Shown here piece after piece: positions 15,284 through 38,433 of a DNA stretch of 57,864 nt. Position 1 is the stretch's first letter; the number at the start of each line of letters is the position of its first letter. Under the pieces are notes generated by a model, which worked only from the letters and a program-made list of their open reading frames with translations, ran no database searches and had not been told where the DNA came from. Source of the DNA: an uncultured virus (IMG/VR IMGVR_UViG_3300027668_000009) (Duplodnaviria; Heunggongvirae; Uroviricota; Caudoviricetes); IMG/VR virus record IMGVR_UViG_3300027668_000009. One strand, 5' to 3'. The translations under genes and the position numbers were made by a program.

Positions 15284-15286
15284 TGA

Positions 15287-15847: not shown

Positions 15848-15879
15848 AATTTAGTTCCTCTCAATATTATTGTATCACA

Positions 15880-17454
15880 TTAGTCGCCAATTGGCAACTT
15901 TCTTTTCCATTTTAAAAAGTCTTCAAGATTATTTATGGTGCTATAATCCATCCCTTTTACCCAAGGGCCACCACGTGTGTAGTGAATCCCGCTGTAGTTA
16001 TATTTCTCTTCGTGATTATCGTATCCTTCTACGAAGATATAGTGTTCGGGTATCTTGGATATCTTCTCCGTCCACTCAAATTGGTGTAACTGTTTTCCTG
16101 TCCATGTATTAACTACTTCGGGTGTTAACTTCTTACAGTCTTCATGACCATTGTTGAACACCATCATACTAGACCAAAGTTTCCTAGGGTAATCTATGTT
16201 AACCTCACCATCAAACTTTGTCTCATCATGTTTGTATTGTGGATACTGAATACATGCAACAGCATCATTAGGGTTTAAGTAGTAGAACATTGGTAGTATA
16301 CTCTTCTTAAAGATGAAATCATCATCAATAAAGATACTAAATCCTTCATAGTTCTCTAAGTAAGGTATTAAGAATCTACTGTATGTAAACTCAGTACTTT
16401 GATTTGCATACTCTCTAGTATACTCTTCAATCTCTGCAATGTCAAGTATTTTAACTTCGGGTGCCCAATGACATTGGTCATGCATCCATCCTTTACCAAA
16501 GCCTTGTTGAATACTTTCTAAGATTGCATACTTAGATACTTTTGATAAGTCTCCATGTCTACTGTCATGACCGATATAGATTGTAAGTGGTTTACCTTTT
16601 GCAAGGTCAAACATCTGTTTGTTGAATTCATGTACTTCATCTCTGAAATCTAAATCCATCAATGCAGTATTGTATTCGATACACCCATCCACGTATGTAC
16701 ATGAGATATGATATGGTTTATTTAATCTTTCACACTTATTATACCACATCTGTAATACGCTGTCAAGGCTTGATGGTTCTACTTTGACCACATCATAACT
16801 ATCTAAGACCATGATTTCCATATCATTATCTTGCAACTCTTCAAAGACACCCGAACGAATAGAGCCTGGATGTATTCTAAAGGTATAAGTAGGTTCAGTA
16901 TTCAAACCAGTAATACCATTCTCAATTACGTAACCTTGAATAGGAGCTCTAAGACCTTCTTCTTGAATACTCTGAATTAACCAATGTGCTTTTGCACCAT
17001 GATAATACATTGATAGTAATGAACCTTCTGACTGTTCATTTCTGTCTACACCTTCCCAATCGATTAATGTGTCTAAATTAACATACCCATCTGCATCTTT
17101 CATGTCCATTCCAGCATGGCCTGGAATTGGTGTCCTAGGTTTCTCTGCATATCCTACTGGTAAAAACTTGTTATATATTACGGATTCATTTCTAAGACCA
17201 TTGAACCCACCAAATCTATTGTCCTTTCTTAGATACTCAAAGTCTTTCCACTTTGCAACTTTTACTGGGGGTAGAATTTCATCGAACAACCATTCTAATA
17301 TCTTGTATGATTCTTTGGTTTTATCTATGCTATCGAGATTAAAAGCACCTAGATGATAGGGCCCAAGGGATTGTCTGTCTTGTGACGTAAGATTTTTCCA
17401 ATCTTGTTTTGAGATAAGTTCTTTCGCTTGTTCTAAGGTCTCAATTTTCTGCAT
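15880..17454 (-). CDS. Two-domain protein: N-terminal ParB/Srx-like domain plus C-terminal GT-A glycosyltransferase
   Basis: C-half IYIGHDSR, STEFTYSRFLIPYL, DDD (DxD), YPRKLWSS, HYTRGGPW; N-half WLIQSIQEEGLRAPIQG...IHPGSIR. Confidence 0.8.
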   Translation of the reverse strand: MQKIETLEQAKELISKQDWKNLTSQDRQSLGPYHLGAFNLDSIDKTKESYKILEWLFDEILPPVKVAKWKDFEYLRKDNRFGGFNGLRNESVIYNKFLPVGYAEKPRTPIPGHAGMDMKDADGYVNLDTLIDWEGVDRNEQSEGSLLSMYYHGAKAHWLIQSIQEEGLRAPIQGYVIENGITGLNTEPTYTFRIHPGSIRSGVFEELQDNDMEIMVLDSYDVVKVEPSSLDSVLQMWYNKCERLNKPYHISCTYVDGCIEYNTALMDLDFRDEVHEFNKQMFDLAKGKPLTIYIGHDSRHGDLSKVSKYAILESIQQGFGKGWMHDQCHWAPEVKILDIAEIEEYTREYANQSTEFTYSRFLIPYLENYEGFSIFIDDDFIFKKSILPMFYYLNPNDAVACIQYPQYKHDETKFDGEVNIDYPRKLWSSMMVFNNGHEDCKKLTPEVVNTWTGKQLHQFEWTEKISKIPEHYIFVEGYDNHEEKYNYSGIHYTRGGPWVKGMDYSTINNLEDFLKWKRKLPIGD

Positions 17455-17544: not shown

Positions 17545-18663
17545 CTATGCTGAAATTGGTGTTGCAGGCCACTGTTGTGAACCAACTCCATCCCATCTTG
17601 CTTCGGGGGTTTGACCCTGTCTTGCATATGTGAACGGACTTCTATGTTGGTACGTAAACGGTGTCTGACCAGTTCTATTGTAAGTAAACGGACTTCTATG
17701 TTGATATGTGAAAGGTGTTTGACCTTGTCTAGCATATGTACTAGGAGACCTGTGACTGTACGTAAACGGTGTCTGTCCAGTTCTTTGATACGTAAACGGT
17801 GTTTGTGCATTTCTTATATTAGGTTCTTGACCTGTTGCGATATAAGGGAAGTTAACCGCTGCATTTCTTATGTTAGGTTCTTGTGCATTTACAGGGTTTC
17901 TATAAGTGAACGGTGACCTATGTTGATAAGTAGCAGGTTGTCTAGCATTAGAAGGGTTCTGATAAGTGAACGGACTTCTATGGTTATACGTAAACGGTGA
18001 CTGACTGTTTCTAATATTAGGTTCCTGTGAAGAACGGATATTAGGTTCTTGGTTGTTTCTAATATTAGGCTCTTGTGCAGATACAGGGTTTCTGTAAGTG
18101 AACGGTGACCTATGGTTGTACGTAAATGGTGCTTGGTTATTCCTAATGTTAGGTTCTTGTATAGACCTAATGTTCGGTTCTTGAATACTTCTAATGTTAG
18201 GCTCTTGTGCAGATACAGGACTTCTGTAAGTGAACGGTGACCTGTAGTTGTACGTATATGGTGACCTATGGTTGTAAGTACTAGGTTGTCTTGCATTATT
18301 AGGCTGTCTTGCATTTGCAATATACGGTTGTCTATATGTAAACGGTTGCCTTGCACTGTTAGGTTGTCTTGCATTTGCAATATACGGTTGTCTATATGTA
18401 AACGGTTGTCTTGCATTATTAGGCTGTCTTGCACTTACTGGATGTCTGTATGTAAACGGATTCTGAAACGTAAATGGATTCTGTCCATTTGCTGGATATC
18501 TTGCGTTATATGTAAATGGTGCTTGGAATGTAAATGGTTGTTGAGCATTCGCAGGGTATCTTGCACTATATGTAAACGGTTGCTGTGATATCGAAGGCGA
18601 CCTTACGTTCACACTCGACTGAGCATTACGGATATTCGGTTGTTGTCTGTACCCTATTGGCAT
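17545..18663 (-). CDS. Pro-punctuated repeat protein A (mirror partner of B), putative fibre chain
   Basis: 372 aa = 8 + 344 repeat + 20; AGGA SD upstream. Confidence 0.85.
   Translation of the reverse strand: MPIGYRQQPNIRNAQSSVNVRSPSISQQPFTYSARYPANAQQPFTFQAPFTYNARYPANGQNPFTFQNPFTYRHPVSARQPNNARQPFTYRQPYIANARQPNSARQPFTYRQPYIANARQPNNARQPSTYNHRSPYTYNYRSPFTYRSPVSAQEPNIRSIQEPNIRSIQEPNIRNNQAPFTYNHRSPFTYRNPVSAQEPNIRNNQEPNIRSSQEPNIRNSQSPFTYNHRSPFTYQNPSNARQPATYQHRSPFTYRNPVNAQEPNIRNAAVNFPYIATGQEPNIRNAQTPFTYQRTGQTPFTYSHRSPSTYARQGQTPFTYQHRSPFTYNRTGQTPFTYQHRSPFTYARQGQTPEARWDGVGSQQWPATPISA
17608..18639 (-). repeat. Array of 47 units of 6/8/10 aa (PFTYxHRS, PNIRxxQx, PFTYRN, PVSAQE, PYIANARQ...)
   Basis: Parsed from translation; includes a near-perfect 60-nt tandem repeat around 18285-18432. 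Confidence 0.9.
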
Positions 18664-18711: not shown

Positions 18712-19962
18712 TTACGGCTCATAATAGTTAGGACTTCCGCCACCATAGGCAAAGTAGTATGTAAATGGTGACCTATGTTGATATGAACTAGGTGATTGTG
18801 CAATACTTGGAGTCTGAACATTCACCGACGAACGAGCATTGGCAATGTAAGGGACTCTATATGTAAACGGATTCCTTGCACTATTAGGTTGCCTTGCGTT
18901 AGCAATGTATGGTTGTCTATAAGTAAACGGTTGTCTTGCACTATTCGGTTGTCTCGCATTACTTGGTTGTTGATAAGTAAACGGTGCTTGGAATGTGAAA
19001 GGACTCTGTCCATTTGCTGGATACCTACTGTTGTAAGTAAACGGTGCTTGGAATGTAAACGGTGACTGACCATTTGCTGGATACCTACTGTTGTAAGTAA
19101 ACGGGGCTTGGAATGTAAACGGTGACTGACTGTTTCTAATATTAGGTTCTTGAATACTTCTAATGTTAGGTTGCTGAGCACTCACTGGGTTTCTATATGT
19201 AAATGGAGACCTATGGTTGTACGTAAACGGTGACCTATGGTTGTATGTGTAAGGAGACCTGTGATTGTATGTACTAGGTTGTCTTGCGTCTCTTATGTTA
19301 GGTTGCTGTGCATTTACAGGGTTTCTATAAGTGAACGGTGACCTGTGGTTATACGTTGATGGTGACCTATGGTTATAAGTAAACGGACTTCTGTGTTGAT
19401 ACGAAGCAGGTTGTCTTGCTTGACGTATGTTAGGTTCTTGTCCATTCACTGGGTTTCTGTAAGTGAAAGGAGTCTGACTATTACGTATGTTAGGTTCTTG
19501 TCCGTTTACTGGGTTTCTATATGTAAATGGAGACCTATATTGATAAGTAACAGGTTGTTGACCTACATTATTGTAAGTAAATGGAGACCTATGTTGATAC
19601 GTACTAGGTTGTCTTGCATTAGCAATGTAAGGATACGGTTGTTGTGCAGACCTAATGTTAGGTTCTTGGTTGTTAGCAATGTACGGATACGGTTGCTGTG
19701 CATCTCTTATGTTTGGTTCTTGTCCAGTTGCAATATAAGGATACGGTTGTTGTGCATCTCTTATGTTTGGTTGCTGACCAGCTGCAATGTATGGATATGG
19801 AATTTGCGTTGCAGTTTGCCCTGACGCATTATTCCATCCAGTAGGAGTCTTAACATAAATTTGGTCGACGGCCTTCCATGTAGTAGAACCTGTCTTTACC
19901 CATGCACCTTGAGTTGAATTCCAACCCGACGGTGTTTTGACCTTTTGTGAACCTGTTGCCAT
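18712..19962 (-). CDS. Pro-punctuated repeat protein B with N-terminal VK..W beta-motif domain, putative fibre chain
   Basis: 416 aa = 54 + 344 repeat + 18; N-terminus KVKTPSGW..AWVKTGSTTWKAVDQIYVKTPTGW; AATAAATA at 19987-19994. Confidence 0.85.
   Translation of the reverse strand: MATGSQKVKTPSGWNSTQGAWVKTGSTTWKAVDQIYVKTPTGWNNASGQTATQIPYPYIAAGQQPNIRDAQQPYPYIATGQEPNIRDAQQPYPYIANNQEPNIRSAQQPYPYIANARQPSTYQHRSPFTYNNVGQQPVTYQYRSPFTYRNPVNGQEPNIRNSQTPFTYRNPVNGQEPNIRQARQPASYQHRSPFTYNHRSPSTYNHRSPFTYRNPVNAQQPNIRDARQPSTYNHRSPYTYNHRSPFTYNHRSPFTYRNPVSAQQPNIRSIQEPNIRNSQSPFTFQAPFTYNSRYPANGQSPFTFQAPFTYNSRYPANGQSPFTFQAPFTYQQPSNARQPNSARQPFTYRQPYIANARQPNSARNPFTYRVPYIANARSSVNVQTPSIAQSPSSYQHRSPFTYYFAYGGGSPNYYEP
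18769..19800 (-). repeat. Array of 47 units of 6/8/10 aa, mirror image of the array in gene A
   Basis: Parsed from translation; includes a near-perfect 60-nt tandem repeat around 18975-19130. Confidence 0.9.
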
Positions 19963-24755: not shown

Positions 24756-26342
24756 TTAAAATGTTCCGCCGTCAATACCAGTGATTGCAACTGCACCACT
24801 AGAAACCGTGAAGTTTGCTGTAGCAAAACTTGCGATACCTTTGTTAGATACTGTTGCATCTTCTCCAGTAATCGTAGCAGTTCCACCACTATAAGCAACA
24901 TCCATACCTTCACCAGCTGCAACAATAACAACACCTAAATTAGATGCAGTTGACTGTTCACTACTGATTGTTATGCTTCCAGCACCGTTAGTAACATCAA
25001 TTCCGTCACCAGCAGTAATAGTTCCTAGAGCTAAATCTGAACCAGTACCCATCATTATCTGACCGTTACTTGGAGCTGAACCGTCTATTGAAGTGATTGA
25101 ACCACTTAGAGCAAGACCTGTTGCTTCAACATTACCGAATACACCGTCCATCGCTGTACCACTGAATACTGAAGAAGAATCTGTTGCAGCTTTAAGAGCA
25201 ACAAATTTCTGATTATTTTCGTCCATACCGAAGAAACCAATTTTAGCAGTTCCATCGTTATATTTGAATTTAATACCACGGTCTAAGTTATCATCTGAAC
25301 TATCTGAACCAATTTCAAAAACTGGGTCTGCGATAGAAACAGTTTCACTGTTTACTGTAGTTGTTGTACCGTTAACACTTAAGTTACCTGTAACTACAAC
25401 GTTACCACTTGCAGTCAATGTTGATGCAGTGATGTCGTCTGAGTTAAGTGTTCCGCCAACTGTTACGTTGCCGAAGTTAACGTTGTCTGAAGTTCCAACT
25501 GACTGACCAATTGCAAACGTTACCGCTTGTCCTGTTGCAGAAGTTGTTACACCAGTTCCACCTGTGAAGGCGATTGCTTGTGAGTCTAAATCAACTGCTA
25601 ATGTTCCACTGTCTGCAGTTCCGTCAAGGTCTTGACCTTGTAGTTCTGAAGTTACTGCGTCTACATATGCTTTAACTGACTGCTGTGATGCTACCTTAAC
25701 TGCTGAGTTAGAAGCCATGTTGTCTTCATCGACTAAGAAGTCAATGTTTCCAACTTGAACTGCGCCTGCAGAGATTGTTACAGCACCGTTGGCTGCTAGA
25801 GTTGCGTCACCACTGAATGTTACGTTGTCAAATGAGTTACTACCGTCATGAACAAGTACTTGACCTGCTGATGGAGTTGTAATATCTGAATCCGTAGCAC
25901 CTGCTAGGGTTGATGTTGTTGATAAGAATGAAAGTTGTCCCGAACCATCTGTACCGATGACTTGGTTTGAACTACCATCACTTGAAGGAAGAGTCCATGT
26001 TACTGAAGAACCTAAAGTATTTGGAGATTTAAGAGCAACGAAGTTTGTTCCGTTGTCTGTGTCTTCCATTAACTTTAAACTACCACCTGTACTTGCACTA
26101 TTACCAACCTTAAGGTCGGCAGGAGTTGCAGAAGTACCAGCAAGCATATCTGTATAGTACTTACCACCAATTGCTTGGATTAACGGTGTACTATTATCAG
26201 AATCTACTGATTCGATGAATAATTTTGCTCCAGCACCTGAATTCGTCCTATCCTGTACGTACGCTAATTCTCCCTCAGATAAATCTGAGATTGAAGGATT
26301 AGCAAGACCCGTACTTCTTTTAATTTGAATTACTGTTGCCAT
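24756..26342 (-). CDS. Tail fibre-like protein
   Basis: MATVIQIKRS...LSEGELAY start, SQQSVKAYVD, GNVVVTGNLSVNGTTTTVNS, ends IDGGTF. Confidence 0.8.
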   Translation of the reverse strand: MATVIQIKRSTGLANPSISDLSEGELAYVQDRTNSGAGAKLFIESVDSDNSTPLIQAIGGKYYTDMLAGTSATPADLKVGNSASTGGSLKLMEDTDNGTNFVALKSPNTLGSSVTWTLPSSDGSSNQVIGTDGSGQLSFLSTTSTLAGATDSDITTPSAGQVLVHDGSNSFDNVTFSGDATLAANGAVTISAGAVQVGNIDFLVDEDNMASNSAVKVASQQSVKAYVDAVTSELQGQDLDGTADSGTLAVDLDSQAIAFTGGTGVTTSATGQAVTFAIGQSVGTSDNVNFGNVTVGGTLNSDDITASTLTASGNVVVTGNLSVNGTTTTVNSETVSIADPVFEIGSDSSDDNLDRGIKFKYNDGTAKIGFFGMDENNQKFVALKAATDSSSVFSGTAMDGVFGNVEATGLALSGSITSIDGSAPSNGQIMMGTGSDLALGTITAGDGIDVTNGAGSITISSEQSTASNLGVVIVAAGEGMDVAYSGGTATITGEDATVSNKGIASFATANFTVSSGAVAITGIDGGTF

Positions 26343-26484
26343 TTTTATTTTCCTTTAAATAAAATTATTAGTTTTTTCTCGTTCACTATCCCGAGAAGTT
26401 GAGTTCATAATATAGTCTGTCCACTCACAATGTGGGTCGTATCCTCACTGTCGGATACCTTGATTTGTACACTTATTTAGTGTT

Positions 26485-26718
26485 TTAGAATGTTCCACCG
26501 TCAAGGACGGTAGTTGTTGTCCATTTGTCTGCTGACTGGTCATACGATAGTAACCCACCATCTGTCTCTGTTGCAGAAACATCTGAAAGTTCTTGGATAG
26601 ATTTAGTGCCTAAATCAGCACCAGTACCCACGGTTACTTGGTTTGCTTTGATATTACCAGCTCCTGCTACTCTACCACCTACGGTTGCAATTCGTGATAA
26701 TGTTCCTCTAATTGCCAT
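26485..26718 (-). CDS. Small fibre-associated protein
   Basis: IQELSDV...DGGLLSYD...KW, ends LDGGTF. Confidence 0.7.
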   Translation of the reverse strand: MAIRGTLSRIATVGGRVAGAGNIKANQVTVGTGADLGTKSIQELSDVSATETDGGLLSYDQSADKWTTTTVLDGGTF

Positions 26719-26722
26719 AATC

Positions 26723-27052
26723 TTACCTCGTTACACTTGGAGTTACGATGGCTTGTCCTTCTATTACTCTTGTAGTAGTCGAACCTGTAGTTACAGTCAT
26801 ATCATATACGTATCTACCTGCTTCTAAAGCACCTGTTACAGTATCAGTTAAGGTTAATGAAACCTTACCTGCGTTAGCAACAATGACCGTACCAAAAGTT
26901 GCAGAAACAGCAGAAGAACTATAAGTCTTTCTCATTTGAGCAGATGCTGTATAACCAGTTAGATTTAATACATTACCCACTGCGTCTGTGACATCCACAG
27001 TAATTGTAAAATCTGTATGTTGGTCGATGAATATGTTTGCAAGAATAGCCAT
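26723..27052 (-). CDS. Small beta-sandwich virion adaptor-like protein
   Basis: ANIFIDQHTDF, LNLTGYTASAQMRK, GRYVYD, RVIEG..IVTPSVT, a pattern common in marine T4-like phages. Confidence 0.75.
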   Translation of the reverse strand: MAILANIFIDQHTDFTITVDVTDAVGNVLNLTGYTASAQMRKTYSSSAVSATFGTVIVANAGKVSLTLTDTVTGALEAGRYVYDMTVTTGSTTTRVIEGQAIVTPSVTR

Positions 27053-27057
27053 AATAC

Positions 27058-27065
27058 TATTTATA
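27058..27065 (-). promoter_or_regulatory. Late promoter TATAAATA
   Basis: Exact motif in gap. Confidence 0.7.
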
Positions 27066-27070
27066 ACCTT

Positions 27071-28198
27071 TTATGTTTGGTACTGAGCAGATGGTACAGA
27101 TTGGTGTATTTTCCTTGCTGTACCTTGGTCGTTTACATGTAGTTCTGATAATTTTTTAAGAGTTCCACCATCATTTACAAAGATACCTTTGACCTTTGCA
27201 TATCTAGGTATGACTCTTGTTGTCGCATATGTTACTTGATATGTGAACGGACTTCTATGTTGATATGAAACTTGACTTCCAGCGTTATAGAAGAATGGTG
27301 TTTGTGAGTTTCTTATATTAGGTTCTTGTCCAGCAACAGCAGACTGATAAGTAAACGGACTTCTATGTTGGTACGTAAACGGTGTCTGACTACTAGCAAT
27401 GTATGGGTAAGGTAATTGTGCATTCCTAATATTAGGTTCTTGTCCAGTTGCTTGATACGTATATGTTATATCATGATTGGCTGCGACTGGAGTTCGACCA
27501 GTTCTATTATAAGTAAACGGACTTCTATGTTGATACGTGAACGGTAACTGACCAGTATTTTGATAAGTAAATGGTGTCTGACTTACCTTTACAACATTAG
27601 TCTGAGCGTTACTAGGATTCCTATATGTGAAAGGAGTTCTAGACTGATAGGTAGCAGGTTGCAGTCCTTGTCTTGAATACGTAAATGGACTTCTTCTATC
27701 ATAAGTAAACGGACTCTGATGCTGATACTCGGATGGTTGTCTTGTGTCCCTAATGTTAGGTTCTTGAGCATTCACTGGACTTCTATAAGTAAATGGACTT
27801 TGATGACTGTATTCAGAAGGGTTTCTTCCTTGAGCAATGTACGGATACGGTTGTTGTTGTTGTCTAGTATCTTGATACGTCAATGGACTTCTATGATTGT
27901 ATTCTGCTGGTTGTCTTGCCTCTCTTATGTTTGGCTCTTGTGCAGATACAGGACTTCTATACGTAAACGGACTTTGATGTTGATACGTAAACGGTGTTTG
28001 TACCGTTGTTGGATGCCTGTAAATTGCAGATACTTGACCCTGTCTTGCATAAGTAGAAGGTTGTTGAGCATCCCTAATGTTTGGTTCCTGTCCAGTTGCA
28101 ATGTACGGATACGGTTGCTGTGCATTTGCGATAGAAGGTGTTCTATATGAAACTATAGAAGGGTGCTGATATATGAATGGTTGTTGTCCTGTTGCCAT
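27071..28198 (-). CDS. Pro-punctuated repeat protein D (mirror partner of C), with C-terminal KVKGIFVNDGG beta-motif domain
   Basis: Start revised to ATG at 28198 (MATGQQ), 1 nt after the stop of C, GGAGGAG upstream; 6 + 322 repeat + 47 aa. Confidence 0.85.
   Translation of the reverse strand: MATGQQPFIYQHPSIVSYRTPSIANAQQPYPYIATGQEPNIRDAQQPSTYARQGQVSAIYRHPTTVQTPFTYQHQSPFTYRSPVSAQEPNIREARQPAEYNHRSPLTYQDTRQQQQPYPYIAQGRNPSEYSHQSPFTYRSPVNAQEPNIRDTRQPSEYQHQSPFTYDRRSPFTYSRQGLQPATYQSRTPFTYRNPSNAQTNVVKVSQTPFTYQNTGQLPFTYQHRSPFTYNRTGRTPVAANHDITYTYQATGQEPNIRNAQLPYPYIASSQTPFTYQHRSPFTYQSAVAGQEPNIRNSQTPFFYNAGSQVSYQHRSPFTYQVTYATTRVIPRYAKVKGIFVNDGGTLKKLSELHVNDQGTARKIHQSVPSAQYQT
27215..28180 (-). repeat. Array of 41 units, mirror image of the array in gene C
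   Basis: Parsed from translation. Confidence 0.85.
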
Positions 28199-28199
28199 G

Positions 28200-29858
28200 T
28201 TATAAAGGAGCTCCTCCACCTTTTGCTGATACTAGTCTTACTGTTTGATTTGATGGCCCTGTTGTATACAAAGTAGTTTCACCAGTCTTGTAAACTCTTA
28301 ATTGGATTTGCACTGCCGTACTCATCATTTCTGCATAAGGGTTTTGATTCGAGTTCCCACTATTTGTAGACCATTTGAATTCGACGCCCGTTTGAGACGA
28401 ACCATTCCAAACATTATGCCATGTGTTTTTAGCCTTTGCACCAGTTGGATTACTACTATCAAATGGGGCTTTAGCACTACCACCGAACTGTTGTGTCTTT
28501 TGGTCAGCACTTGAAGTCCACTTCACATCAATAGACCAACTGTTATCAATTGGACTGTATACATCAATGTAGTCTTCATATGCAGGCCCTATCTGTGCAG
28601 AGTCTACTGCATACCAGTTTGTTTTTACTTTGTTGACATTACTTCCACTAGTTTGATAGTTGAATTCCATACTTGCAGCTGCCGAAGTTGCAAAGTTTGC
28701 TGTATACGACCTTTGTGTATCCCAAGTTCTGTTTGTTGTTCCTTGTGAACTTTGGGCATTTGTATGTTGGGCTGCACTATTGCCTGGGCCCCAAGTAGTA
28801 TTACCTACCCCATTATCATCTCCATCTACACCATCAAAGATGAAAGGAGTTCTTCCTACTGCTGGAGACCTTTGACTTGTAGTTGCTGGAGTCTGTACAT
28901 TATATGTGAAAGGTGTTTGACCCTGTCTTGCATATGTAAATGGACTTCTGTGTTGGTACGTAAATGGTGACCTAGCATTTGCAATGTACGGATATGGTGT
29001 CTGTGACTCCGAAGGTTGCTGAGCGTCTGAGGGTTGTCTTGCGTTTCTAATGTTAGGTTCTTGACCACTCACTGGGTTTCTATATGTAAATGGAGACCTG
29101 TAATTGTACGTAAACGCTGTTTGGTTATTCCTAATATTAGGTTCTTGAGTTGTCACTGATACAGTATAAGTAGTAGGTGTTTGACCAGTTCTCTGATACG
29201 TAAACGGTGATTGATTGTTTCTAATGTTAGGTTCTCGACCCGACACTGGGTTTCTATAAGTGAAAGGAGACCTGTGTTGATAATCAACTAATGCTTGTGC
29301 ATTCCTAATATTGGGTTCTTGACCAGCTGCGATATTAGGTTCTTGTCCAGTTGCAATATAAGGATAAGGTATTTGTGAGTTTGCAATATTTGGTTGTTGC
29401 CCACTTACTGGATTCTGATAAGTGAACGGACTAGGATGCTGATAAAAACCCGAGGCTCTTGCCTGTGCTATATAAGGGTAAGGTTGTTGTGCATTCCTTC
29501 CATTCGGTTCTTGTCCAGTTGCAATATAAGGATAAGGTTGTTGATGTTGATATATTGCTGGTTGTTGTCCAGTCCTAACATATGTAAACGGTGACCTATG
29601 TTGATACGCTGCTGGAGATTGTCCTTGTCTTACATAAGTACTAGGTTGTCTTGCATTTCTTATGTTAGGTTCTTGTGCAGATACAGGATTGTTGTAAATG
29701 AACGGACTTCTGTGTTGATAAGTATTTGGTTGACGTGCGTTTGCTGGAGACTGTATTGCTACCTGTCGTATATTAGGTTCTTGGGCATTTGCGGGAACTC
29801 TAGCAATATAAGGTTGCTGAATCTCCGTCGCTATATTTACAAAAGTTTCTTCAGACAT
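28200..29858 (-). CDS. Pro-punctuated repeat protein C with C-terminal ~215-aa globular domain
   Basis: 552 aa = 15 + 322 repeat + 215 non-repetitive Trp/Ser/Thr/Asn-rich domain. Confidence 0.85.
   Translation of the reverse strand: MSEETFVNIATEIQQPYIARVPANAQEPNIRQVAIQSPANARQPNTYQHRSPFIYNNPVSAQEPNIRNARQPSTYVRQGQSPAAYQHRSPFTYVRTGQQPAIYQHQQPYPYIATGQEPNGRNAQQPYPYIAQARASGFYQHPSPFTYQNPVSGQQPNIANSQIPYPYIATGQEPNIAAGQEPNIRNAQALVDYQHRSPFTYRNPVSGREPNIRNNQSPFTYQRTGQTPTTYTVSVTTQEPNIRNNQTAFTYNYRSPFTYRNPVSGQEPNIRNARQPSDAQQPSESQTPYPYIANARSPFTYQHRSPFTYARQGQTPFTYNVQTPATTSQRSPAVGRTPFIFDGVDGDDNGVGNTTWGPGNSAAQHTNAQSSQGTTNRTWDTQRSYTANFATSAAASMEFNYQTSGSNVNKVKTNWYAVDSAQIGPAYEDYIDVYSPIDNSWSIDVKWTSSADQKTQQFGGSAKAPFDSSNPTGAKAKNTWHNVWNGSSQTGVEFKWSTNSGNSNQNPYAEMMSTAVQIQLRVYKTGETTLYTTGPSNQTVRLVSAKGGGAPL
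28848..29813 (-). repeat. Array of 41 units of 6/8/10/12 aa
   Basis: Parsed from translation. Confidence 0.85.
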
Positions 29859-29859
29859 A

Positions 29860-31434
29860 TCATATCACAAACCATAGGTGTCCAACTTCGGTTCCATCCA
29901 CACTACTAGGAGCCGATGACACTATTTCATAATCCAATTGTATTTTATCTGTAACAAGACTGCCTGAGTGTTTTAACCCATGGCCTGGGTCTGTTGCAAA
30001 CGTTAATGCATTTCCATCACCAGTATATGTTTCAGTAATACCAGTACCACCCACTGTCAATGCAGCGACATCGTTATCTCCGTATGTAGGAACTCCAGTA
30101 AGTATAATTTTGTCAGCTGCATCGTCATATGATGCAGTGATGTTTGTATGAGAACTATGATTTAATAGTCCCGACACTTTGTCTTGTGCAAATTCTTGGA
30201 AAGTTACTCCACTGAATGTTAGGTTACCAGCAATATCTACGTTGCCACTTACATCTAATGAACCTGCGTCTAGTTCACCACTAAGTGTAACGTTTCTGAA
30301 TCCAGTGATGTCTTTGTTTGCATCTACTACGACTGTTCTATTTGCAACTATGGTTCCTTGAGTTGAACCATCATTGAAGTTTAGTTCGGTTGCAGTTGAA
30401 CTTACGGTCACACCGTTAAGTGAGAACCCATCTGTTTCAAGAATACCATCAACGTCAACGTTACCACTGATATCTAAAGAACCTGCGTCGAGTTCTCCAG
30501 TCAATGTTATATTTCTGAATCCAGTAATGTCTTTGTTTGTATCTACTGCAACTGCTTTACTAGCAATTACAGTTCCATTTGTTAGGTCATCGATTTTTTC
30601 TAAATCTGTTTGGTCTATTCTTGCACTTCCGATTACGAATTCACTTCCAGCAATTATGTCTGTAGATGACGTAATGTCTCCACCAGCTTGAACTGTTGAA
30701 GTTAGAACTGCAGTCGTACCACTTAGATTACCGTTGAATACTGTTGATGTGATTGCAGTAAATCCTGTACCCACACCGCCTGTAATCGTTGCTGTTGAGT
30801 CGGTAAAGGTTGGTGCGGTGATTGTATGTCCTGTGTCTACTGTAAGATTGCCATTAAGGAAGGTCTTACCGTATAATTCTATATCATTGGTACCTGTAAG
30901 AGTTGTTACCCTACTGGCTGCATCTGCATAGTTACCATTTATAATAACACCGTTATCGTTATGATTATAAATTGTATTTGCAGCGGTCTCTGTAAAGAAA
31001 CCTATTGCAGTTCCACCTTCAGTTGATGTACCTAAGTATGAACCTGTGAATGAGTATATGACAACCATGTCATCAACATTAACGGCTGCCGTTAAAGTGA
31101 TTCTGAAATAGATATTTCCAACAACTTGAGAGATAGAGTAGTCAGCACCCTCTAATAATAGAGTAGAATTTTTGAATACTTGGAACCTATCTTGTCTTAG
31201 TCTAAGTGTATTATTAAAATCATCTACACCTTGGAATACTGTTTGACCTGCTGTTGAGGTATAGATAAACTCTTGAAAGAAAAACGATTTGTCTTCTAGA
31301 CTATTCAGAGCATCGATTACCGTTTCGGTATTCTCCGTTCTTAAGCCAGACTTATCACCAACGTCAACTGCTAATTCGTTGTACTTGGTTCTAAACTGTT
31401 CAATAGTTGAGTATGTGTCTACTGTCTTTGCCAT
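29860..31434 (-). CDS. Tail fibre/appendage protein
   Basis: MAKTVDTYSTIEQFRTKYNEL start, TAGQTVF motif, duplicated VDxNKDITGFRNxTLxGELDAGSLDxSGNVD; C-terminal SSAPSSVDGTEVGHLWFVI. Confidence 0.8.
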   Translation of the reverse strand: MAKTVDTYSTIEQFRTKYNELAVDVGDKSGLRTENTETVIDALNSLEDKSFFFQEFIYTSTAGQTVFQGVDDFNNTLRLRQDRFQVFKNSTLLLEGADYSISQVVGNIYFRITLTAAVNVDDMVVIYSFTGSYLGTSTEGGTAIGFFTETAANTIYNHNDNGVIINGNYADAASRVTTLTGTNDIELYGKTFLNGNLTVDTGHTITAPTFTDSTATITGGVGTGFTAITSTVFNGNLSGTTAVLTSTVQAGGDITSSTDIIAGSEFVIGSARIDQTDLEKIDDLTNGTVIASKAVAVDTNKDITGFRNITLTGELDAGSLDISGNVDVDGILETDGFSLNGVTVSSTATELNFNDGSTQGTIVANRTVVVDANKDITGFRNVTLSGELDAGSLDVSGNVDIAGNLTFSGVTFQEFAQDKVSGLLNHSSHTNITASYDDAADKIILTGVPTYGDNDVAALTVGGTGITETYTGDGNALTFATDPGHGLKHSGSLVTDKIQLDYEIVSSAPSSVDGTEVGHLWFVI

Positions 31435-31643
31435 TATTCCCTATCCAATAATTGTTGAAGCATCACTTTCATGTCCGATACTTCGTTCTTTAATGTATTT
31501 ATCTCTTCTCTCTGAGCTAAAAACTTTTGTTTTCTAACTCTGTGTAATCTATACTGTTCTGTATCAGTATTTATGATAGCATGAGATGTTGCATCTCTAT
31601 AAAGATGAGTATGTCCCTCAACCTTTATAGACATCTTATGCAA
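31434..31643 (-). CDS. Small hypothetical coiled-coil protein
   Basis: KVEGHTHLYRD...AIINTD...EINTLKNEVSDMKVMLQQLL. Confidence 0.75.
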   Translation of the reverse strand: MHKMSIKVEGHTHLYRDATSHAIINTDTEQYRLHRVRKQKFLAQREEINTLKNEVSDMKVMLQQLLDRE

Positions 31644-34600
31644 GTGCCATACATCTCAATGCAGTTACCGCTGGTACCACTGAGGTGTTTTGACCTTGTC
31701 CTACTATCTTAACTACGAATCCACTAAACTCGGGTAAGTTGTTTACAGTAAACTCATATTCTTTAAAGTTTCTTGCATCAGCTTCTGTTGCCACATCGGG
31801 TGCGCCAGTTGTATTGAAATATTCAAAACCGACATCATCTAGTAAAGTTTCTTCGTCATTTTTGATGATTTTATACATCAATTTAACTTCTGTTGTTGGT
31901 GGTCTAAAGACATCGCAAATAACCTTAATGGATGTTGCTGGAGTCTTGAGATTAACCTTTCTTGTTACATAGACCATTACGTTATTATCACCTTCGGACT
32001 CTGTTGATGGGACATATACTGACCCACTTGGTAGAGAATTTGTAGTTGTATTAACTTTCTTCGAAGTTGCACTGTCTATGTTATTAATTCTGTTTGCAAT
32101 ACCTAAGCAACCACATGTTTGTACGTCAATCATAGGTGATATATTAGGGTTAAATGACATTAATTGTAACTGTAGGTTAAACGATTTCTGTGAGGACATG
32201 TTTAACTCTTCATTTTCGGGTGAAGCCACGATTGCTGGTGCATCCATGAAGACATTGTCATTTAATGTTACAAATTTATTTGTTAGGTTCCTTGTATATA
32301 CAGTTCCATTGATACTACCTTCGGGTGAGTACTGAGGAGTTGTAAGAACGTTTGCACTAATTATAGTTCCTTTCAATTGTACTGAAGGAATCATTGTGTG
32401 TAATGCATCGAAGTAATAGTTTCTAGTTGCAGTTGCGCTACTTCCACCACCGATTGTTGAATCGAATGCATATGAAGCTGAAAAACTATAACTTGATACC
32501 GAAGGAGTGATTCTAAATGAATCTATTCCTCTATCTGCCATTGTACTGGCAAGATGTAGTTTATTAAGAGATGAAAGAGGACATCCACCGAGGGTGTCTT
32601 CGACTGTACCTAATACAACGGTTACTTCTGCAGTTCCAGTTCCCATGTCTGTGATGACAATACTATCACCAGTAGTGTAGTTCTGTCCACATTTTAGAAT
32701 GTTTACATCTGTTACTGCACCACTTGCTACGATAACTTCAAATTTGATTCCACTACCTGTTCCACCACTATGGACATCATTCGTACAATCGATTGTTGCA
32801 TCTGCTGGTAATGTTCCACTACCAGTCGTTGAAAAACTAGTTACGAGTACTGCAGAATTTTTCTTATCTGCAACAATACCTGCTAGAGTTACGTTATCTT
32901 TACTACTAGTATCATCATAGAAACCATGTTGATATGAATATACTTTGATTTTCTTATCAGCAAAAGTTTCGATTGGGTTTAACTGTAGTTTAGTTGCTGG
33001 TATAGCATCGTTTTCAAAATTAACATTACCTATTTTTGTAATATCATATTTTGCAACTTTCATGTTAAATTTAAGGTCGTCTGTCTGTTCTGCAGTCCAA
33101 GTGGAAGCATTCTGAGACATGAATAATGACCCAGCATATGGTTGACCACTTATAACTTCTGCAGTCACTATGTCTGTTTCTCCCATTCTAGAAATGAAGC
33201 ACTCATACTCGTTTGAGTTAGAGTAAACAACGAAACAATATTCATTGTCTTGTTCTAAATGAACTGCTGAATCAAATGTAAATGTTGTTTTAACTGAACC
33301 ATCTGCAGAGGTATTAATATCTGCTGGATTCTTAGTAACATCTGAGAATGGCATTACAATCTGGCCTGGATATCCATTGACCATGTTTCTAATTTGTACT
33401 GAACAAGGCATGAATGTATCTTTTGTTGAAAAGAACAAGTCGATTGAAGTCATGTCCATACCACCCTGTGCATCAACCAAGAATGATTGTGCAAGTGGGT
33501 CACCCCATCCTCTCATCTCTCCACCATTCAATATTTGGATTAGAGGTCTGTCAATTGACAATCCACTGAAATCTCTTCTGTCAATAAATGGTACTGCTGG
33601 TGGCAACGGAGGCGGTGTTGGTAGAGATATAACAGGTGGTATAAACCTAATATTTGGTATAATGTTAGGTATCAATATCGGTATTGGTATCTCGGGAATG
33701 AATATATCAATTATAACTGGTATGTTATCAATTGGTATCTCATTGACTGGCGGTAGGTCGGGTGCAGTAGTATCATGTACTTCTGAGTTCAGTCTTTCAC
33801 CTCTTCTAGAGAAATCTCTAGTTGCTGAACGGTCTTCTCTAATAACTCTACCATTTCTTGTTGAAACTACTTCTGTTTGAGACGCTTGCAATATACCTTG
33901 TGCAGTATACATTGCATTACCTTGTGAAGCAGGGTTGGCCATGTTGTAGAAACTTGAAGTTATTCTAAAGTCTCTTTGTCCTGTTGGGAATCGTTGAGTT
34001 GCATTGTTAGGCAATACAAATACTGCTCTTAGTCTACCATTACCATCTGTTTTACACTGTAGTGGTAAATTAGCTGCAAGTGTAAGGAAGTCCTCATCAC
34101 TTGAACCTTCAACAAATGAATCGGGTGTTTGAGCATACGTTGAACTATAAGGTCTTACAAATTTGTTAACATTGATGTTATCAAAGTAGAAGTAATGGTT
34201 CGAATTTGGTTTTAAATTAGTTGCATCAACTGTAATAAGTCTTGTACGGATAAATGGTATCAATGACATTGACACAATTCTATCGTTTCTTGTCTCTACA
34301 AAATCTTCAACTACACTTGTTGAAACACCAGTTCTTGTTTGAATTTCGGGTGTGTCTGTAAGTTCTCTACTAACCTGTAGTCCAGCAATCCATTCACCAC
34401 CTTGTAGTGGGTCTCCACTCCATGAACCATTTGAAGTTGCTTGTACTTCACTTGATACAGTAGATGGTTCTCCTGCCCATGTTGTTTGCCATGAGTTCCA
34501 AACTGTTCCTAATGCATTTGCATTAGTAGACATCAATGCATCGAAGTTACCTTCACGGTTAACTCTTACATCTGGCAGTCTGTCTGTGTCTTGCCAAATA

Positions 34601-37600
34601 TCTGTATCGGGTGATAACTTAATGTTACCAATGAATGCAAATACGTGATAAGGGTTTACGTTTATTGAACGAGATGCTTTTGTTTGATTGACATAACTAA
34701 CTTCACTATATGGTAAAGTAATCATATCACCAGTTCTTTGATAGTTAGATGATGCACCAAGATTCTGTGTGACACCGAAGAACTGAGTGAACGACTTAGG
34801 TCTTAACATACCTGTTTTAGTATCGATAGCACAGTTATAGTCGGGATGATTTACATCACCAATCTTGTGACCTCTAAAGTTATCTACTAGGAAGCCTGAC
34901 TTGTATCTATCAAATCCTTCTGCATCTAGTATCTGTTTTGTTTGTGTGTCTTTTTCTAATAAAGAAAGAGACGTAATTCTTTCAAGGTTAGTAACCCTGT
35001 TGTTTATCTTACCGATATCCTTCATGGTATATCGTCTATGGTCGAAACTTCTTACCGATATATCACTTAACTTATTGGTATAAGGTGGTATTTTCATTTC
35101 AAACATTTGAATACAATCGTCTAATGCTGTTGGCTTAGTCGGTGATAATGCTGGTGTTCCCTGTGATATTTCGAACTTACCTTTCTTATGTAAGAATACT
35201 TTATCGATTCTTCCAACATAGAATGAGATGTTACCAGTAACAGCCGAACCACTTACTGGAACGTCTACTGAGTTAGCACCTGTTGATGTAATACCAGTTC
35301 TTGCACCCAAGAATGAACGACCACTCTCATATCCAAATGGTGCATAGTATGCTCCATTCGAATTATCCGATAAATCTACTGGTGATGATGGGTCATTATC
35401 TGTTGTTCCGAAACTTGAGGTTCCAAGAATTTGTCCTACAACTGGTCTAAAGTCCAATGCATCTGAAAGTTCATATGTTCCATCGGGTTCTAATCCACCT
35501 AAATCTACTTTGTTTGGTGAGTAAACTGGGATGTCTGAATAATCAATTGTTGAATATGAAGATACATCAAAGAAATCTCCACCACCCGATACTCTAAAGT
35601 AATCGAATACGATTAGAAGAGGCCCGTTAGGTGTTGGTTGCCCAGGCTTTAATGTTAGTTTTGATAGGTCATAATACCCATCTCTTTGACCATTGTCAAA
35701 GAAGTATCTGTCTTTAATATCGAGTGAACCAGTTTCCAGTCCAGCTGCCAGTGGCATTGTTCCAGTTGCTAAGGATGTTTGTCCTACTACGGTTTCACTT
35801 GCAGAGAATACTTCACCATCTGTTGATTTGTAATACCAGTATGATTTGGTACCACCACCATTTTTGATGAGACATGCTCTTGCGCCCGATGTTTGTCCAA
35901 TGAATGTTTCATAGTTGACAAATGTACCACTTGTTGTGGTTATAATTCCGTTAGGTGTGATTGGTGTTCCATCCACTCCTTCGTATACTGCAACAATCTT
36001 GTGTACGTCTGCAACACCAAATGATATATCTTTATCATCGTATGCAGTTCCGTAATGACCATTACTACTTCTTGGTAATGATACTTTAAGACATCTTGCT
36101 TGAGATAACGTTTTACCTCTTGCAGTAGGGGATGCTACAATAACTGTGTACGTTGCATCGATTATAGCAGTATTGTTCCCACTAGGAACGGTCAATGTTA
36201 ATGTTTGTGTATTTCCACTGGTTGTAACGTTTGGTGATAGGTCTTCAATATTAATTATGTCACCAGCATTGTATCCGCCACCAATTGCTTCTCTTACTGA
36301 GATTGCAAAGTTGTCTGTAGTTCTAGAATCAAATTGTTCGCCTGCGTTAGTTACAATTTGTATACTAGTTCCACCGACTTGTTTACTTACCTGTCTTCTT
36401 ACTTTTGAAGTAAGTGGAGTATGGGTCTTGACCCAATCTCTAGGGAATGAATGAATGTTTGCAGTTTGGTTTTGGTCATATAGTTTTGCACGTCTTCTGA
36501 TTGCATTACCACTATATGTTGATGAACCAACAGCAGTTAAAGTTAAACTTGTTTCTGACTGTACCGAAAGTACTTGGTTTATAGTACCTGCTTGGTCTAG
36601 GAGTTTGTCCCCTTCTTTTAGTTCTTTTGCAAACTGAGTTGCAAAACCTGTAACGGTTGCTGAACCAGTTGACATTGTAACTGTTCCAGTTACGACATTG
36701 TCTAGGGTTAGTGAGATGTCTGCTTTAAATATCTCTCTTGCAACTACGTTAGGTGTTTGTAAGATTGACCTTGCACGGTCTAAGTTATAAGCTCTTATTG
36801 CAGTATTATTAGCTGCAGTAATTGTTGCAGTGTTACCTGTACCAATTGCTGTTATTGCATCTGAAGTTGTGAATACACCTTGTACATCATGCACATATAG
36901 TCCTGCTGAACTTCCACTTCCATCAATGTGATGAACTATAGCACTTGCACCACTTACACTACCAGTGACTTTATCACCTGCTACAAATGTATTTGTTTGT
37001 GTTCCAGTAATTTTAGTGAACATCTTGATATCAAATAGATATAGATTGAATACTGCATCCGTACCATATACGTCACTTGAATCAACACCACTAACATGGT
37101 CAACGTTTCTAATTCTACATGTTCCAATGTTTAAACCAGCAGACGCTGCTAAACCATCATGTAGTAATGCTGGATTGTGTGGGTCTATTACATCTGAACC
37201 AACTTCGTTACCGAACTCGGGTAGACCATGAGCATTGAATACTCTTAATTTGTTTCCTAATCTAATAGGTGCTGATACACCAGTTAGGGATTCTGTTGTT
37301 CTTGCTTTTGGAATGTTTAGAGTAGTTGTTCCAACCTTATCGATTTCATAACCTCTAACATATGCCTTGCCCGGCGATACCATGAATACAAATCTTGCTT
37401 CTTCTCCACCATTATTTTTTGTGTAGAAACCTAGATTGGTTCCATCGTCTAAATGTTGTCTCATTGATGCAGTGAATTGTGAAACTACAAAGTCTCCGTT
37501 TGCATCGAATGTTCTTCTTGCAAGAGTATTTTCTATCTCTGCATATTTTGTTTTGTCTATTTTAAGTGTGATGACACCTGCGTTAACTCTTGATAGTTCA

Positions 37601-38433
37601 ACGAAGGATGTTCCCAATACTGAATCTAAAGTGTGTTTACCTAATGTTAGATTGAATTGTAAACGGTCAGCACCAACTGCGTTTTCGTTTGTTGTTCCCG
37701 AGGCGTTATCTTCTAGAGATGTATCAGCTGATGATGTTACTAATGTTTCAACAATGTCTAAACCCACTCTGAAAGAAGGTGAACCATTGTATTTTTCTAA
37801 CATTAATGTTTGTTTTGCAACCTTGACAAAGAACCCTCTTACGAATACAATACCTTCTGATATTTCTGCAAGAGATGCTCTACCAGTTGGGGACTCTGAT
37901 TTAGGTTGGACTTCGAAATCATTGTTCGATGCTGAATCAGCAGTAACAGTACCATTTGCATCATAACCAACTAACTCTAATGTTTCTGTTGCAGAGAACA
38001 TGAAGTCGGCACTAGCATTAGTACCTTGTTGAACTGGTCTAACAAATAATGTTAGTTTATCTGCAGTAGTTTCTGCAGTAGATGTTACAACTTTTGCAAC
38101 GACACCAGTAGTTTGACCTCTTACATACTTCTCATGAAATGATTCTCTGTATGTTTCTACTGAAGTGTCACCCGCTGAATTTGGGTTTGCAGCTTTTACT
38201 TTAACAAAGTAGATATCCATATCGATGTTCGTTTGAGCACCTTGGATAATTGTTCCCTCTTCGAAGAAATGGTCACCCATTCTTTCAATTTGGTTTTGCA
38301 ATATAGATTGAGACTGAGTTAACTCCCTTGCTTGCAGAGGACGGCCCGCACGATAAAGAACTTTATGGAACTTTTTATCTTCGGAAAAATCGTCGTAATA
38401 AGGTGTTATATTTAAGTCTGTCTTCTCTGCCAT
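31636..38433 (-). CDS. Large virion structural protein (DUF4815/VrlC-like)
   Basis: LNITPYYDDF...FHKVLYRAGRPLQARELTQSQSILQNQ, LARRTFDANGDF, RYTMKDIGKI, KSGFLVDNF, DPLAQSF. Confidence 0.88.
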   Translation of the reverse strand: MAEKTDLNITPYYDDFSEDKKFHKVLYRAGRPLQARELTQSQSILQNQIERMGDHFFEEGTIIQGAQTNIDMDIYFVKVKAANPNSAGDTSVETYRESFHEKYVRGQTTGVVAKVVTSTAETTADKLTLFVRPVQQGTNASADFMFSATETLELVGYDANGTVTADSASNNDFEVQPKSESPTGRASLAEISEGIVFVRGFFVKVAKQTLMLEKYNGSPSFRVGLDIVETLVTSSADTSLEDNASGTTNENAVGADRLQFNLTLGKHTLDSVLGTSFVELSRVNAGVITLKIDKTKYAEIENTLARRTFDANGDFVVSQFTASMRQHLDDGTNLGFYTKNNGGEEARFVFMVSPGKAYVRGYEIDKVGTTTLNIPKARTTESLTGVSAPIRLGNKLRVFNAHGLPEFGNEVGSDVIDPHNPALLHDGLAASAGLNIGTCRIRNVDHVSGVDSSDVYGTDAVFNLYLFDIKMFTKITGTQTNTFVAGDKVTGSVSGASAIVHHIDGSGSSAGLYVHDVQGVFTTSDAITAIGTGNTATITAANNTAIRAYNLDRARSILQTPNVVAREIFKADISLTLDNVVTGTVTMSTGSATVTGFATQFAKELKEGDKLLDQAGTINQVLSVQSETSLTLTAVGSSTYSGNAIRRRAKLYDQNQTANIHSFPRDWVKTHTPLTSKVRRQVSKQVGGTSIQIVTNAGEQFDSRTTDNFAISVREAIGGGYNAGDIINIEDLSPNVTTSGNTQTLTLTVPSGNNTAIIDATYTVIVASPTARGKTLSQARCLKVSLPRSSNGHYGTAYDDKDISFGVADVHKIVAVYEGVDGTPITPNGIITTTSGTFVNYETFIGQTSGARACLIKNGGGTKSYWYYKSTDGEVFSASETVVGQTSLATGTMPLAAGLETGSLDIKDRYFFDNGQRDGYYDLSKLTLKPGQPTPNGPLLIVFDYFRVSGGGDFFDVSSYSTIDYSDIPVYSPNKVDLGGLEPDGTYELSDALDFRPVVGQILGTSSFGTTDNDPSSPVDLSDNSNGAYYAPFGYESGRSFLGARTGITSTGANSVDVPVSGSAVTGNISFYVGRIDKVFLHKKGKFEISQGTPALSPTKPTALDDCIQMFEMKIPPYTNKLSDISVRSFDHRRYTMKDIGKINNRVTNLERITSLSLLEKDTQTKQILDAEGFDRYKSGFLVDNFRGHKIGDVNHPDYNCAIDTKTGMLRPKSFTQFFGVTQNLGASSNYQRTGDMITLPYSEVSYVNQTKASRSINVNPYHVFAFIGNIKLSPDTDIWQDTDRLPDVRVNREGNFDALMSTNANALGTVWNSWQTTWAGEPSTVSSEVQATSNGSWSGDPLQGGEWIAGLQVSRELTDTPEIQTRTGVSTSVVEDFVETRNDRIVSMSLIPFIRTRLITVDATNLKPNSNHYFYFDNINVNKFVRPYSSTYAQTPDSFVEGSSDEDFLTLAANLPLQCKTDGNGRLRAVFVLPNNATQRFPTGQRDFRITSSFYNMANPASQGNAMYTAQGILQASQTEVVSTRNGRVIREDRSATRDFSRRGERLNSEVHDTTAPDLPPVNEIPIDNIPVIIDIFIPEIPIPILIPNIIPNIRFIPPVISLPTPPPLPPAVPFIDRRDFSGLSIDRPLIQILNGGEMRGWGDPLAQSFLVDAQGGMDMTSIDLFFSTKDTFMPCSVQIRNMVNGYPGQIVMPFSDVTKNPADINTSADGSVKTTFTFDSAVHLEQDNEYCFVVYSNSNEYECFISRMGETDIVTAEVISGQPYAGSLFMSQNASTWTAEQTDDLKFNMKVAKYDITKIGNVNFENDAIPATKLQLNPIETFADKKIKVYSYQHGFYDDTSSKDNVTLAGIVADKKNSAVLVTSFSTTGSGTLPADATIDCTNDVHSGGTGSGIKFEVIVASGAVTDVNILKCGQNYTTGDSIVITDMGTGTAEVTVVLGTVEDTLGGCPLSSLNKLHLASTMADRGIDSFRITPSVSSYSFSASYAFDSTIGGGSSATATRNYYFDALHTMIPSVQLKGTIISANVLTTPQYSPEGSINGTVYTRNLTNKFVTLNDNVFMDAPAIVASPENEELNMSSQKSFNLQLQLMSFNPNISPMIDVQTCGCLGIANRINNIDSATSKKVNTTTNSLPSGSVYVPSTESEGDNNVMVYVTRKVNLKTPATSIKVICDVFRPPTTEVKLMYKIIKNDEETLLDDVGFEYFNTTGAPDVATEADARNFKEYEFTVNNLPEFSGFVVKIVGQGQNTSVVPAVTALRCMALA

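Follow-up and report, generated by a model that had tools for sequence, protein, structure and literature searches.

In the 57,864-nucleotide (nt) stretch of DNA from an uncultured virus analysed here (IMG/VR record IMGVR_UViG_3300027668_000009, Caudoviricetes; referred to below as the window), two adjacent minus-strand genes, C (28200..29858) and D (27071..28198), encode arrays of proline-started repeat units that match each other in reverse order over 322 amino acids (aa). This match, together with its conservation in related loci, makes it quite probable that C and D form the two chains of one fibre shaft, in register and antiparallel, in the tail-fibre module of an uncultured marine T4-like myovirus. 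A sister pair on the same strand, with B (18712..19962) as its first gene and A (17545..18663) as its second, shares the code of C/D and has a different unit order.

Repeat arrays of C and D

The 552-aa product of C, as read from its open reading frame (ORF) and translation, has a short conserved N-terminus, a repeat array at residues 16-337 (28848..29813, minus strand) made of proline-started units of 6, 8, 10 and 12 aa, and a C-terminal domain at residues 338-552 (28203..28847, minus strand) that is predicted to be all-beta. D is 375 aa long from its ATG and consists of a 322-aa array (27215..28180, minus strand), the reverse-order complement of the C array, followed by a C-terminal beta-hairpin-like domain of about 47 aa. 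The D array is numbered here as residues 14-335 of P0003, in the frame of a GTG codon, which corresponds to residues 7-328 counted from the ATG. An earlier interpretation of this DNA made without database searches, referred to here as the sequence-only reading, had the coordinates and frames of both genes right, including the start of D. Its 322-aa array in each protein, at residues 16-337 in C, was borne out by tokenising and by the gapless map described below, while its count of 41 units per array hinges on whether 12-mers are split into one unit or two.

Six regular-expression unit rules, fixed before any homologue was examined, were used to classify the arrays: N (PNIR...., 8 aa), H (...Y.H/Y R S, 8 aa), V (PFTYRNPVSAQE-like, 12 aa), G (P..Y...GQ., 10 aa), I (PYPYIA..Q., 10 aa) and a short 8-aa PYIA form. 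Under the pairing rule N faces H (PNIR against PxxYxHRS), G faces I (PFTYxRxGQx against PYPYIAxxQx) and V faces itself (PFTYRNPVSAQE against the same unit). The tokeniser returned 30 classified units and a few unclassified stretches in C, and the classified residues numbered 256 in C and 240 in D. For the mirror test, per-residue class strings were slid along each other without gaps after the unit order of D had been reversed and complemented.

In this test 224 of the 256 classified C residues matched D without a gap. The control orientations of the same two chains gave 92 matches (unreversed with complement), 68 (reversed without complement) and 96 (same order and class). Mirrors of non-cognate chains scored 80 (C against B) and 62 (A against D), and A matched the mirror of B at 236 of 236 residues. 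Shuffling the unit order of D 5000 times gave a mean of 70 (standard deviation 8.5) and a maximum of 122, so that no shuffle reached 224. The claim that C and D match in reverse order by the rule of A/B, with a different unit order, therefore stands. The resulting unit map places C residues a-b opposite D residues (351-b)-(351-a), that is, C 16-337 on D 14-335, 322 aa each. A check that makes no use of unit classes gave the same constant: when C residue i is set against D residue 350-i (zero-based; 351-i one-based), 32 of 40 D prolines coincide with C prolines, and the next best offset gives 22.

Irregular units were also found to face each other, and coordinates confirmed all five irregular pairs that the sequence-only reading had named. 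The elongated 10-mer at C 28-37 lies opposite D 314-323, and the 12-mer at C 228-239 opposite D 112-123. Two PNIA units at C 174-181 and C 156-163 face units without histidine at D 170-177 and D 188-195, respectively. The degenerate unit at C 136-143 faces the NVVK... unit at D 208-215.

Conservation and covariation in related loci

A scan of IMG/VR with C yielded 10 loci on viral contigs at 37-97% identity. The scan with B yielded 179 relatives, from which 79 loci were kept, giving 89 loci for the two queries together. Two adjacent repeat genes on the same strand are present in 82 of these 89 loci, and the remaining seven stop at the locus edge. With the window included, the loci provide 60 distinct gene pairs, to which the unit rules were applied unchanged. 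The mirror score was 77-100% of classified residues, without gaps, across the 60 pairs. It exceeded all three controls in 58 of them and tied with one control in two near-uniform, homogeneous pairs. Proline positions fitted the reversed partner better than the forward partner in 60 of 60 pairs. Adjacent genes on one strand with equal-length, reverse-order complementary, proline-started units were thus found for C/D and for all 60 of the 60 pairs.

The distinct unit pairs follow the pairing rule closely, with 222 N-H pairs versus two N-N and no H-H, 111 G-I pairs versus no G-G and no I-I, and 147 V-V pairs. There are 45 different unit orders among the 60 gene pairs, and in 50 of the 60 a chain scores best with its own partner. 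In the most distant homologue, L010 (37% identity), C consists nearly entirely of H units and D nearly entirely of N (PNIR-type) units, and at two places a 4-aa insert in one chain lies opposite a 4-aa insert in the other. Partners also covary in fibre length (r = 0.72 over 60 pairs). In pairs of the A/B type, length shifts by super-repeats of 44 aa (132 nt; V N H H H facing V H N N N) in both genes together.

The sequence-only reading had held that matched irregularities should be preserved in homologues. They are retained, with the evidence given per pair type. The ...YQHPS unit faces NVVK... in all four C/D-type pairs that have a YQHPS-type unit, and a QSPAxARQ-type stretch faces PFFYNAGS in four of four. 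In L004 the odd 12-mers again lie opposite each other, but swapped between the chains. Covariation between the chains, which had been proposed from a single genome, extends to 60 distinct pairs with 45 unit orders from 89 loci.

Residue-level register

Residues that face each other were tallied over all 60 pairs, counting distinct local contexts. Proline lies opposite proline in 80% of cases, glycine opposite tyrosine in 60%, tyrosine opposite alanine or glycine in 47% and histidine opposite arginine in 62%. Isoleucine faces arginine in 47%, and phenylalanine and threonine each face glutamine in 45%. Within N-H pairs, mutual information was highest for N8-H2 and N6-H2 (z about 28 and 27, and still about 22 after conditioning on the class of the neighbouring unit), values that are inflated by sequence relatedness. 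Both position pairs couple the closing residues of a unit with the opening residues of the unit opposite it.

The Pro-Pro register (i + j = 10) places the arginine of PNIR opposite position 6 of the His unit. Units with arginine at position 4 face histidine or tyrosine at position 6 in 236 of 247 distinct pairs with tyrosine at position 4, compared with 15 of 222 for units with alanine at position 4 and 4 of 18 for those with glycine, which mostly face phenylalanine instead; these contrasts partly reflect differences between unit classes. PNIA is rare, and two of its three distinct pairs are opposite a unit without histidine; the positions in L004 that are homologous to PNIA also face His-less units. 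The Arg-His contact proposed by the sequence-only reading is consistent with this residue map. The Tyr-Ala/Gly, Phe-Gln and His-Arg combinations resemble the packing of large against small and of polar side chains between the two sides of a ladder. Cross-strand pairing of an aromatic residue with glycine is known from antiparallel sheets.

DNA-level origin and assembly

A mirror relation between two genes could also have arisen at the DNA level without any pairing of the proteins, for instance if repeats recombined or if a segment was duplicated in inverted orientation and is read from the opposite strand. The codons of PNIR are nearly palindromic (CCTAAyATTAGG), and long antisense frames are open in places, as such an origin would allow. 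Against it, C and D lie on one strand and no inverted repeats were found in the DNA. The best minus-strand similarity found by blastn is 12 nt (E 0.09), versus 114 high-scoring segment pairs on the plus strand, and the antisense frames contain no unit types except one chance PNIR. Inverted duplication was excluded on these four grounds. In addition, the reverse complement turns PNIR into PNIR and not into a His unit, and retention of the rule across 45 unit orders requires selection on the protein. An origin of the mirror relation in DNA history alone therefore has next to no probability.

At least half of the sampled words of the window are present in 20 public sequencing runs from 13 studies, and two independent DNA studies each contain a 1735-nt contig across the C/D junction (27361-29095) with 7-8 differences. 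Because of these independent occurrences, the C/D sequence is not an assembly quirk of the window. Six of the 20 runs are metatranscriptomic libraries, which can contain DNA and hence are no proof of transcription. Contigs from RNA libraries tile most of the stretch, with 27 and 26 of 30 bins covered and some bins uncovered.

Proposed structure of the fibre

In the structure that we propose, the two 322-aa arrays would lie side by side, antiparallel and in a single register, forming a ladder of short extended stretches, each delimited by prolines. Each C unit would stand opposite a D unit of equal length and complementary type, with contacts between Pro and Pro, between Tyr and Ala or Gly, between His or Ile and Arg, and between Phe or Thr and Gln. 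An insertion in one chain would have to be matched in the other, so that unit lengths would covary. The order of units, which differs between A/B and C/D, would select the partner and the sole correct register, because it is irregular and because neither C nor D matches A or B. Such a register lock would remove slippage in a long repeat fibre and keep two fibres orthogonal in one virion. The proximal end may carry the conserved N-terminus of C and the C-terminal mini-domain of D, and the distal, receptor-facing end the variable C-terminal beta domain of C and the N-terminus of D. A shaft length of about 100 nm (about 105 nm in the sequence-only reading) presumes fully extended chains.

On balance we favour the broader claim that the contacts listed above, together with equal unit lengths, amount to a code readable from sequence that sets the partner and register of an antiparallel, two-gene fibre of about 100 nm. 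A/B and C/D would then be two orthogonal messages within one virion, and fibre length would evolve as both genes gain matching modules.

Short proline-started units could alternatively be strand-turn elements of a layered solenoid, with one C unit and one D unit per layer and layers about 0.48 nm apart, which would give a rod of about 20 nm instead of a ladder of about 100 nm. T4 gp5 offers a precedent for a beta-helical fibre with 8-residue repeats. A solenoid predicts uniform unit lengths along each chain, whereas the observed lengths range from 4 to 12 aa along the chain and are matched across the chains. Proline also lies opposite proline residue by residue, as a ladder needs. Since unit lengths vary along the chain but agree across the chains, with proline facing proline, an antiparallel ladder is the better description and a stacked solenoid is improbable.

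Another possibility is that D is a templating chaperone, which would pair transiently with C by the same code, keep the repeat soluble and in register, and then be released to leave a mature fibre of C only. Phage fibres often require dedicated chaperones, a gene matching a PHROG annotated with tail fiber protein assembly lies just downstream of D, and D alone has no predicted fold. Equal length and complementarity over the full 322 aa, kept in 60 pairs, suggest a permanent 1:1 structure instead. Both chains of the sister pair A/B are almost entirely repeat, and D has its own conserved terminal domain, neither of which favours a released helper. We consider a role of D as a transient template unlikely, and return to C and D as the two permanent chains of the shaft.

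Several observations weigh against such a paired shaft or limit its reach. In 10 of the 60 pairs the own partner is outscored by the partner from another locus; these include L012, L014, L023 and the truncated L038, and several of the others are outscored by only 0.01-0.05. In L012, L014 and L023 (3 of 60 pairs) one chain exceeds the other by one or two 44-aa super-repeats (132 nt), either because assembly collapsed or expanded this tandem repeat or because these are true intermediates of length evolution in which the partner has yet to compensate. The relatedness of the sequences also means that the covariation scores overstate the independence of the pairs. Physical pairing, stoichiometry and an extended beta-like conformation are inferred from sequence, and C and D are putative virion components.

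A ribbon of two 322-residue chains seems too thin on its own, and we therefore propose, tentatively and as one possible arrangement, that three copies each of C and D assemble into a six-stranded needle resembling the tip of T4 gp37, split at the turn into two genes. To be counted against this six-stranded form is the lack of two defining features of gp37, namely HxH motifs and a sequence match to solved chains.

Comparison with known systems

The needle at the tip of T4 gp37 has antiparallel strands along its axis, three in each direction, with the distal head domain at the turn; one chain doubles back, and HxH motifs bind iron (PMC12609058, PMC7291167). C/D resemble this needle, as far as the passages covered describe it and at the level of sequence only, in forming a long thin fibre segment from a T4-like tail-fibre module with regularly spaced histidines and antiparallel, in-register segments (322 aa without a gap, 60 pairs). 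Unlike the single gp37 chain of those passages, C/D have the up and down arrays in two genes, and no self-complementary chain was found among 134 repeat proteins, where the self-mirror score reached at most 0.67 (median 0.40). The iron-binding HxH motif that the passages describe is absent from A, B, C and D (0 occurrences), and C and D instead contain YxH (6 in C, 9 in D) and also YxY. C also differs from solved gp37-like chains in having no sequence match in the Protein Data Bank (PDB). The passages covered describe no unit-pairing code for gp37. We take the C/D array to be about six times the length of the gp37 needle.

The stalk of streptococcal antigen I/II is built from a single chain, in which an alpha-helical, alanine-rich array packs against a polyproline-II array (PMC6586375). 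There, as in the proposed C/D shaft, two different repeat arrays pair lengthwise into a long narrow stalk with a binding domain at the far end (PMC6586375). C/D differ from antigen I/II, as described in the part of that paper covered, by having two chains with one unit grammar, complementarity type by type and residue by residue, and matched variable lengths. An alanine-rich helix against polyproline II within one chain was not seen in C/D, which are two chains, and AlphaFold2 (AF2) predicted no helix in the D array (at low confidence). We regard the antigen I/II stalk as a looser analogy than gp37.

In heterodimeric coiled coils and heterotrimeric collagens, a periodic sequence pattern encodes the partner and the register; these assemblies are helical, mostly parallel and of a single repeat length. 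C/D, by contrast, have at least five complementary unit pairs, four unit lengths, an aperiodic order and no heptad pattern. Glycine at every third residue, as in collagen, is also missing: proline makes up 12-15% of the arrays in both chains and glycine 2-4%, lysine is nearly absent, and G-x-x-G-x-x-G occurs 0 times.

Cementoin (PF10511), the family of hexapeptide repeats that serve as transglutaminase substrates in trappins, was the only Pfam family that matched the repeat proteins. The scores were 43.2 bits for B, the only one above the cut-off of 27, and 15.5 bits for D, and Pfam gave no match for C. As in Cementoin, the repeats are short and rich in Pro, Gln and Val, and the match spans about 25 residues, covering the PV.GQ.P part of one unit type. 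Lysine is the cross-linking partner in cementoin. Membership of C and D in this family was rejected, given the scores below 27 bits and the scarcity of lysine, and the match was read as driven by composition.

Genome setting and gene layout

The window corresponds to the structural module of a T4-like myovirus, with genes almost all on the minus strand. Besides a series of fibre-like proteins, it encodes the major head protein and the portal, sheath, tube, baseplate wedge and hub proteins. Identity of the portal to the portals of Pelagibacter phage Mosig and Methylophilales phage Melnitz is 56-60%, and that of the baseplate wedge protein to its cyanomyovirus counterparts is about 37%. A 2265-aa protein (31636-38433, minus strand; phrog_358, unknown function, 1648 bits) adjoins the baseplate wedge genes, and its N-terminus resembles large cyanophage structural proteins.

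C and D are arranged head to tail. At their junction (28196..28217, minus strand), GGAGGAG at 28211-28217 lies within the last codons of C, followed by the TAA of C at 28200-28202, a single base and the ATG of D at 28196-28198. A longer GTG frame of D starting at 28219 is not needed. This arrangement suggests coupled translation, from which we infer 1:1 synthesis of C and D. The glycine-rich C-terminal tail of C has GGG in five of five aligned homologues, and its codons are the GGAGGAG that resembles the ribosome-binding site of D (28211-28217). Since it is encoded by this motif, the tail may be conserved for the translation of D and not for the function of the C protein.

Directly upstream of C is a 524-aa fibre-like protein (29860..31434, minus strand; phrog_30158, unknown function), a homologue of which is present in 9 of the 10 loci found with C. 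Two small genes of 109 aa and 77 aa (26485..27052, minus strand) lie directly downstream of D, each with homologues in 8 of these 10 loci. PHROG matches of the 109-aa protein are phrog_1084 and phrog_3304, of which the second bears the annotation 'L-shaped tail fiber protein assembly'.

The non-repeat parts of B (N-terminal 54 aa) and D (C-terminal ~47 aa, 27074-27214) consist of short hairpin-like segments rich in Lys, Trp and Gly, and no others. These segments are at opposite termini, N-terminal in the first gene of one pair (B) and C-terminal in the second gene of the other (D). In the antiparallel model, each would sit at a fibre end beside the opposite terminus of its partner.

Directly downstream of A (12993-17454, minus strand) are genes for a 524-aa protein, a 186-aa ORF and two 2-oxoglutarate (2OG)-Fe(II) oxygenases. 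The C-terminal part of the 524-aa protein (phrog_28018) is weakly similar to glycosyltransferase family 8 (Pfam E 4e-4, below the cut-off), and this gene comes after the second repeat gene in 73 of the 79 loci found with B. The oxygenases are encoded at 14561-15283 (PF13640, 34 bits) and 12993-13718 (PF13759, 72 bits). These genes are possible candidates for fibre-modifying enzymes, for example in proline hydroxylation or glycosylation.

Families, folds and relatives

PHROGs held no match for A, B or C, while the C-terminal ~35 residues of D match phrog_13729 (unknown function, E 1.7e-5). A phmmer search of C against all PDB chains gave 0 matches at E<=1. Neither megablast of 26000-31000 nor tblastn of C and B found a match among 50,697 records of cultured phages; the BLAST low-complexity filter may mask the arrays, and the 215-aa globular domain of C was likewise unmatched. 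Searching the complete genomes of Mosig and Melnitz-1 with B, scored by HMMER, also gave 0 matches. In a search of 1.84 billion cluster representatives, D matched 126 proteins at E<=0.001, 89 of them at E<=1e-10. As far as seen, the repeat family is small and occurs in metagenomes alone. We found no paper that carries any of four unit motifs, and literature searches on antiparallel, heterodimer and tail-fibre themes gave nothing relevant among the matches listed.

The C-terminal 215 aa of C, for which there are 14 homologues, were predicted by AF2 (alignment A2) as a domain of about 15 strands with a mean predicted local distance difference test score (pLDDT) of 68.4 and a predicted template modelling score (pTM) of 0.71. 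Foldseek found nothing in the PDB at E<=0.001 for this domain. In the wide VIA-align search the best Z was 4.7, and pilus-adhesin and Ig-like sandwiches scored no better than chance; the ESM Atlas had no usable match. The AF2 model of D alone has a mean pLDDT of 28.6 and two short strands, outside the array, as its sole predicted structure, and is uninformative on the pair.

Three longer metagenomic homologues (P0005, P0006 and P0007; 674-695 aa) were considered as fused forms of C and D and rejected, as they are C-like proteins with other C-terminal domains. They have the N-terminus and repeat units of C, then a different globular domain and a Hint/intein-like C-terminal segment. The Hint/intein-type assignment was made by eye from a Cys-rich start and a '...HNNFYA.G' end, and Pfam gave a weak AXH match alone. 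If it is true, a self-cleaving or ligating end would adjoin the N-terminus of the partner.

Implications

C/D contribute two pairs with orthogonal unit orders in one genome (with A/B), a residue-level register and conserved irregular pairs. They represent an unstudied fibre type in abundant marine myoviruses; Mosig and Melnitz themselves are without these genes. This would also be a rare case in which contacts between proteins can be read from natural covariation, with 45 unit orders already available. If the pairing code is true, it would in effect be base pairing between proteins, and could provide natural orthogonal peptide pairs for the design of self-assembling rods of defined length. For the phage, pairing of the chains would amount to a new construction principle for long fibres, in which two gene products zip together antiparallel and aperiodic complementary units act as register lock and partner address. 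It would also explain how one phage can carry several long repeat fibres without mispairing.

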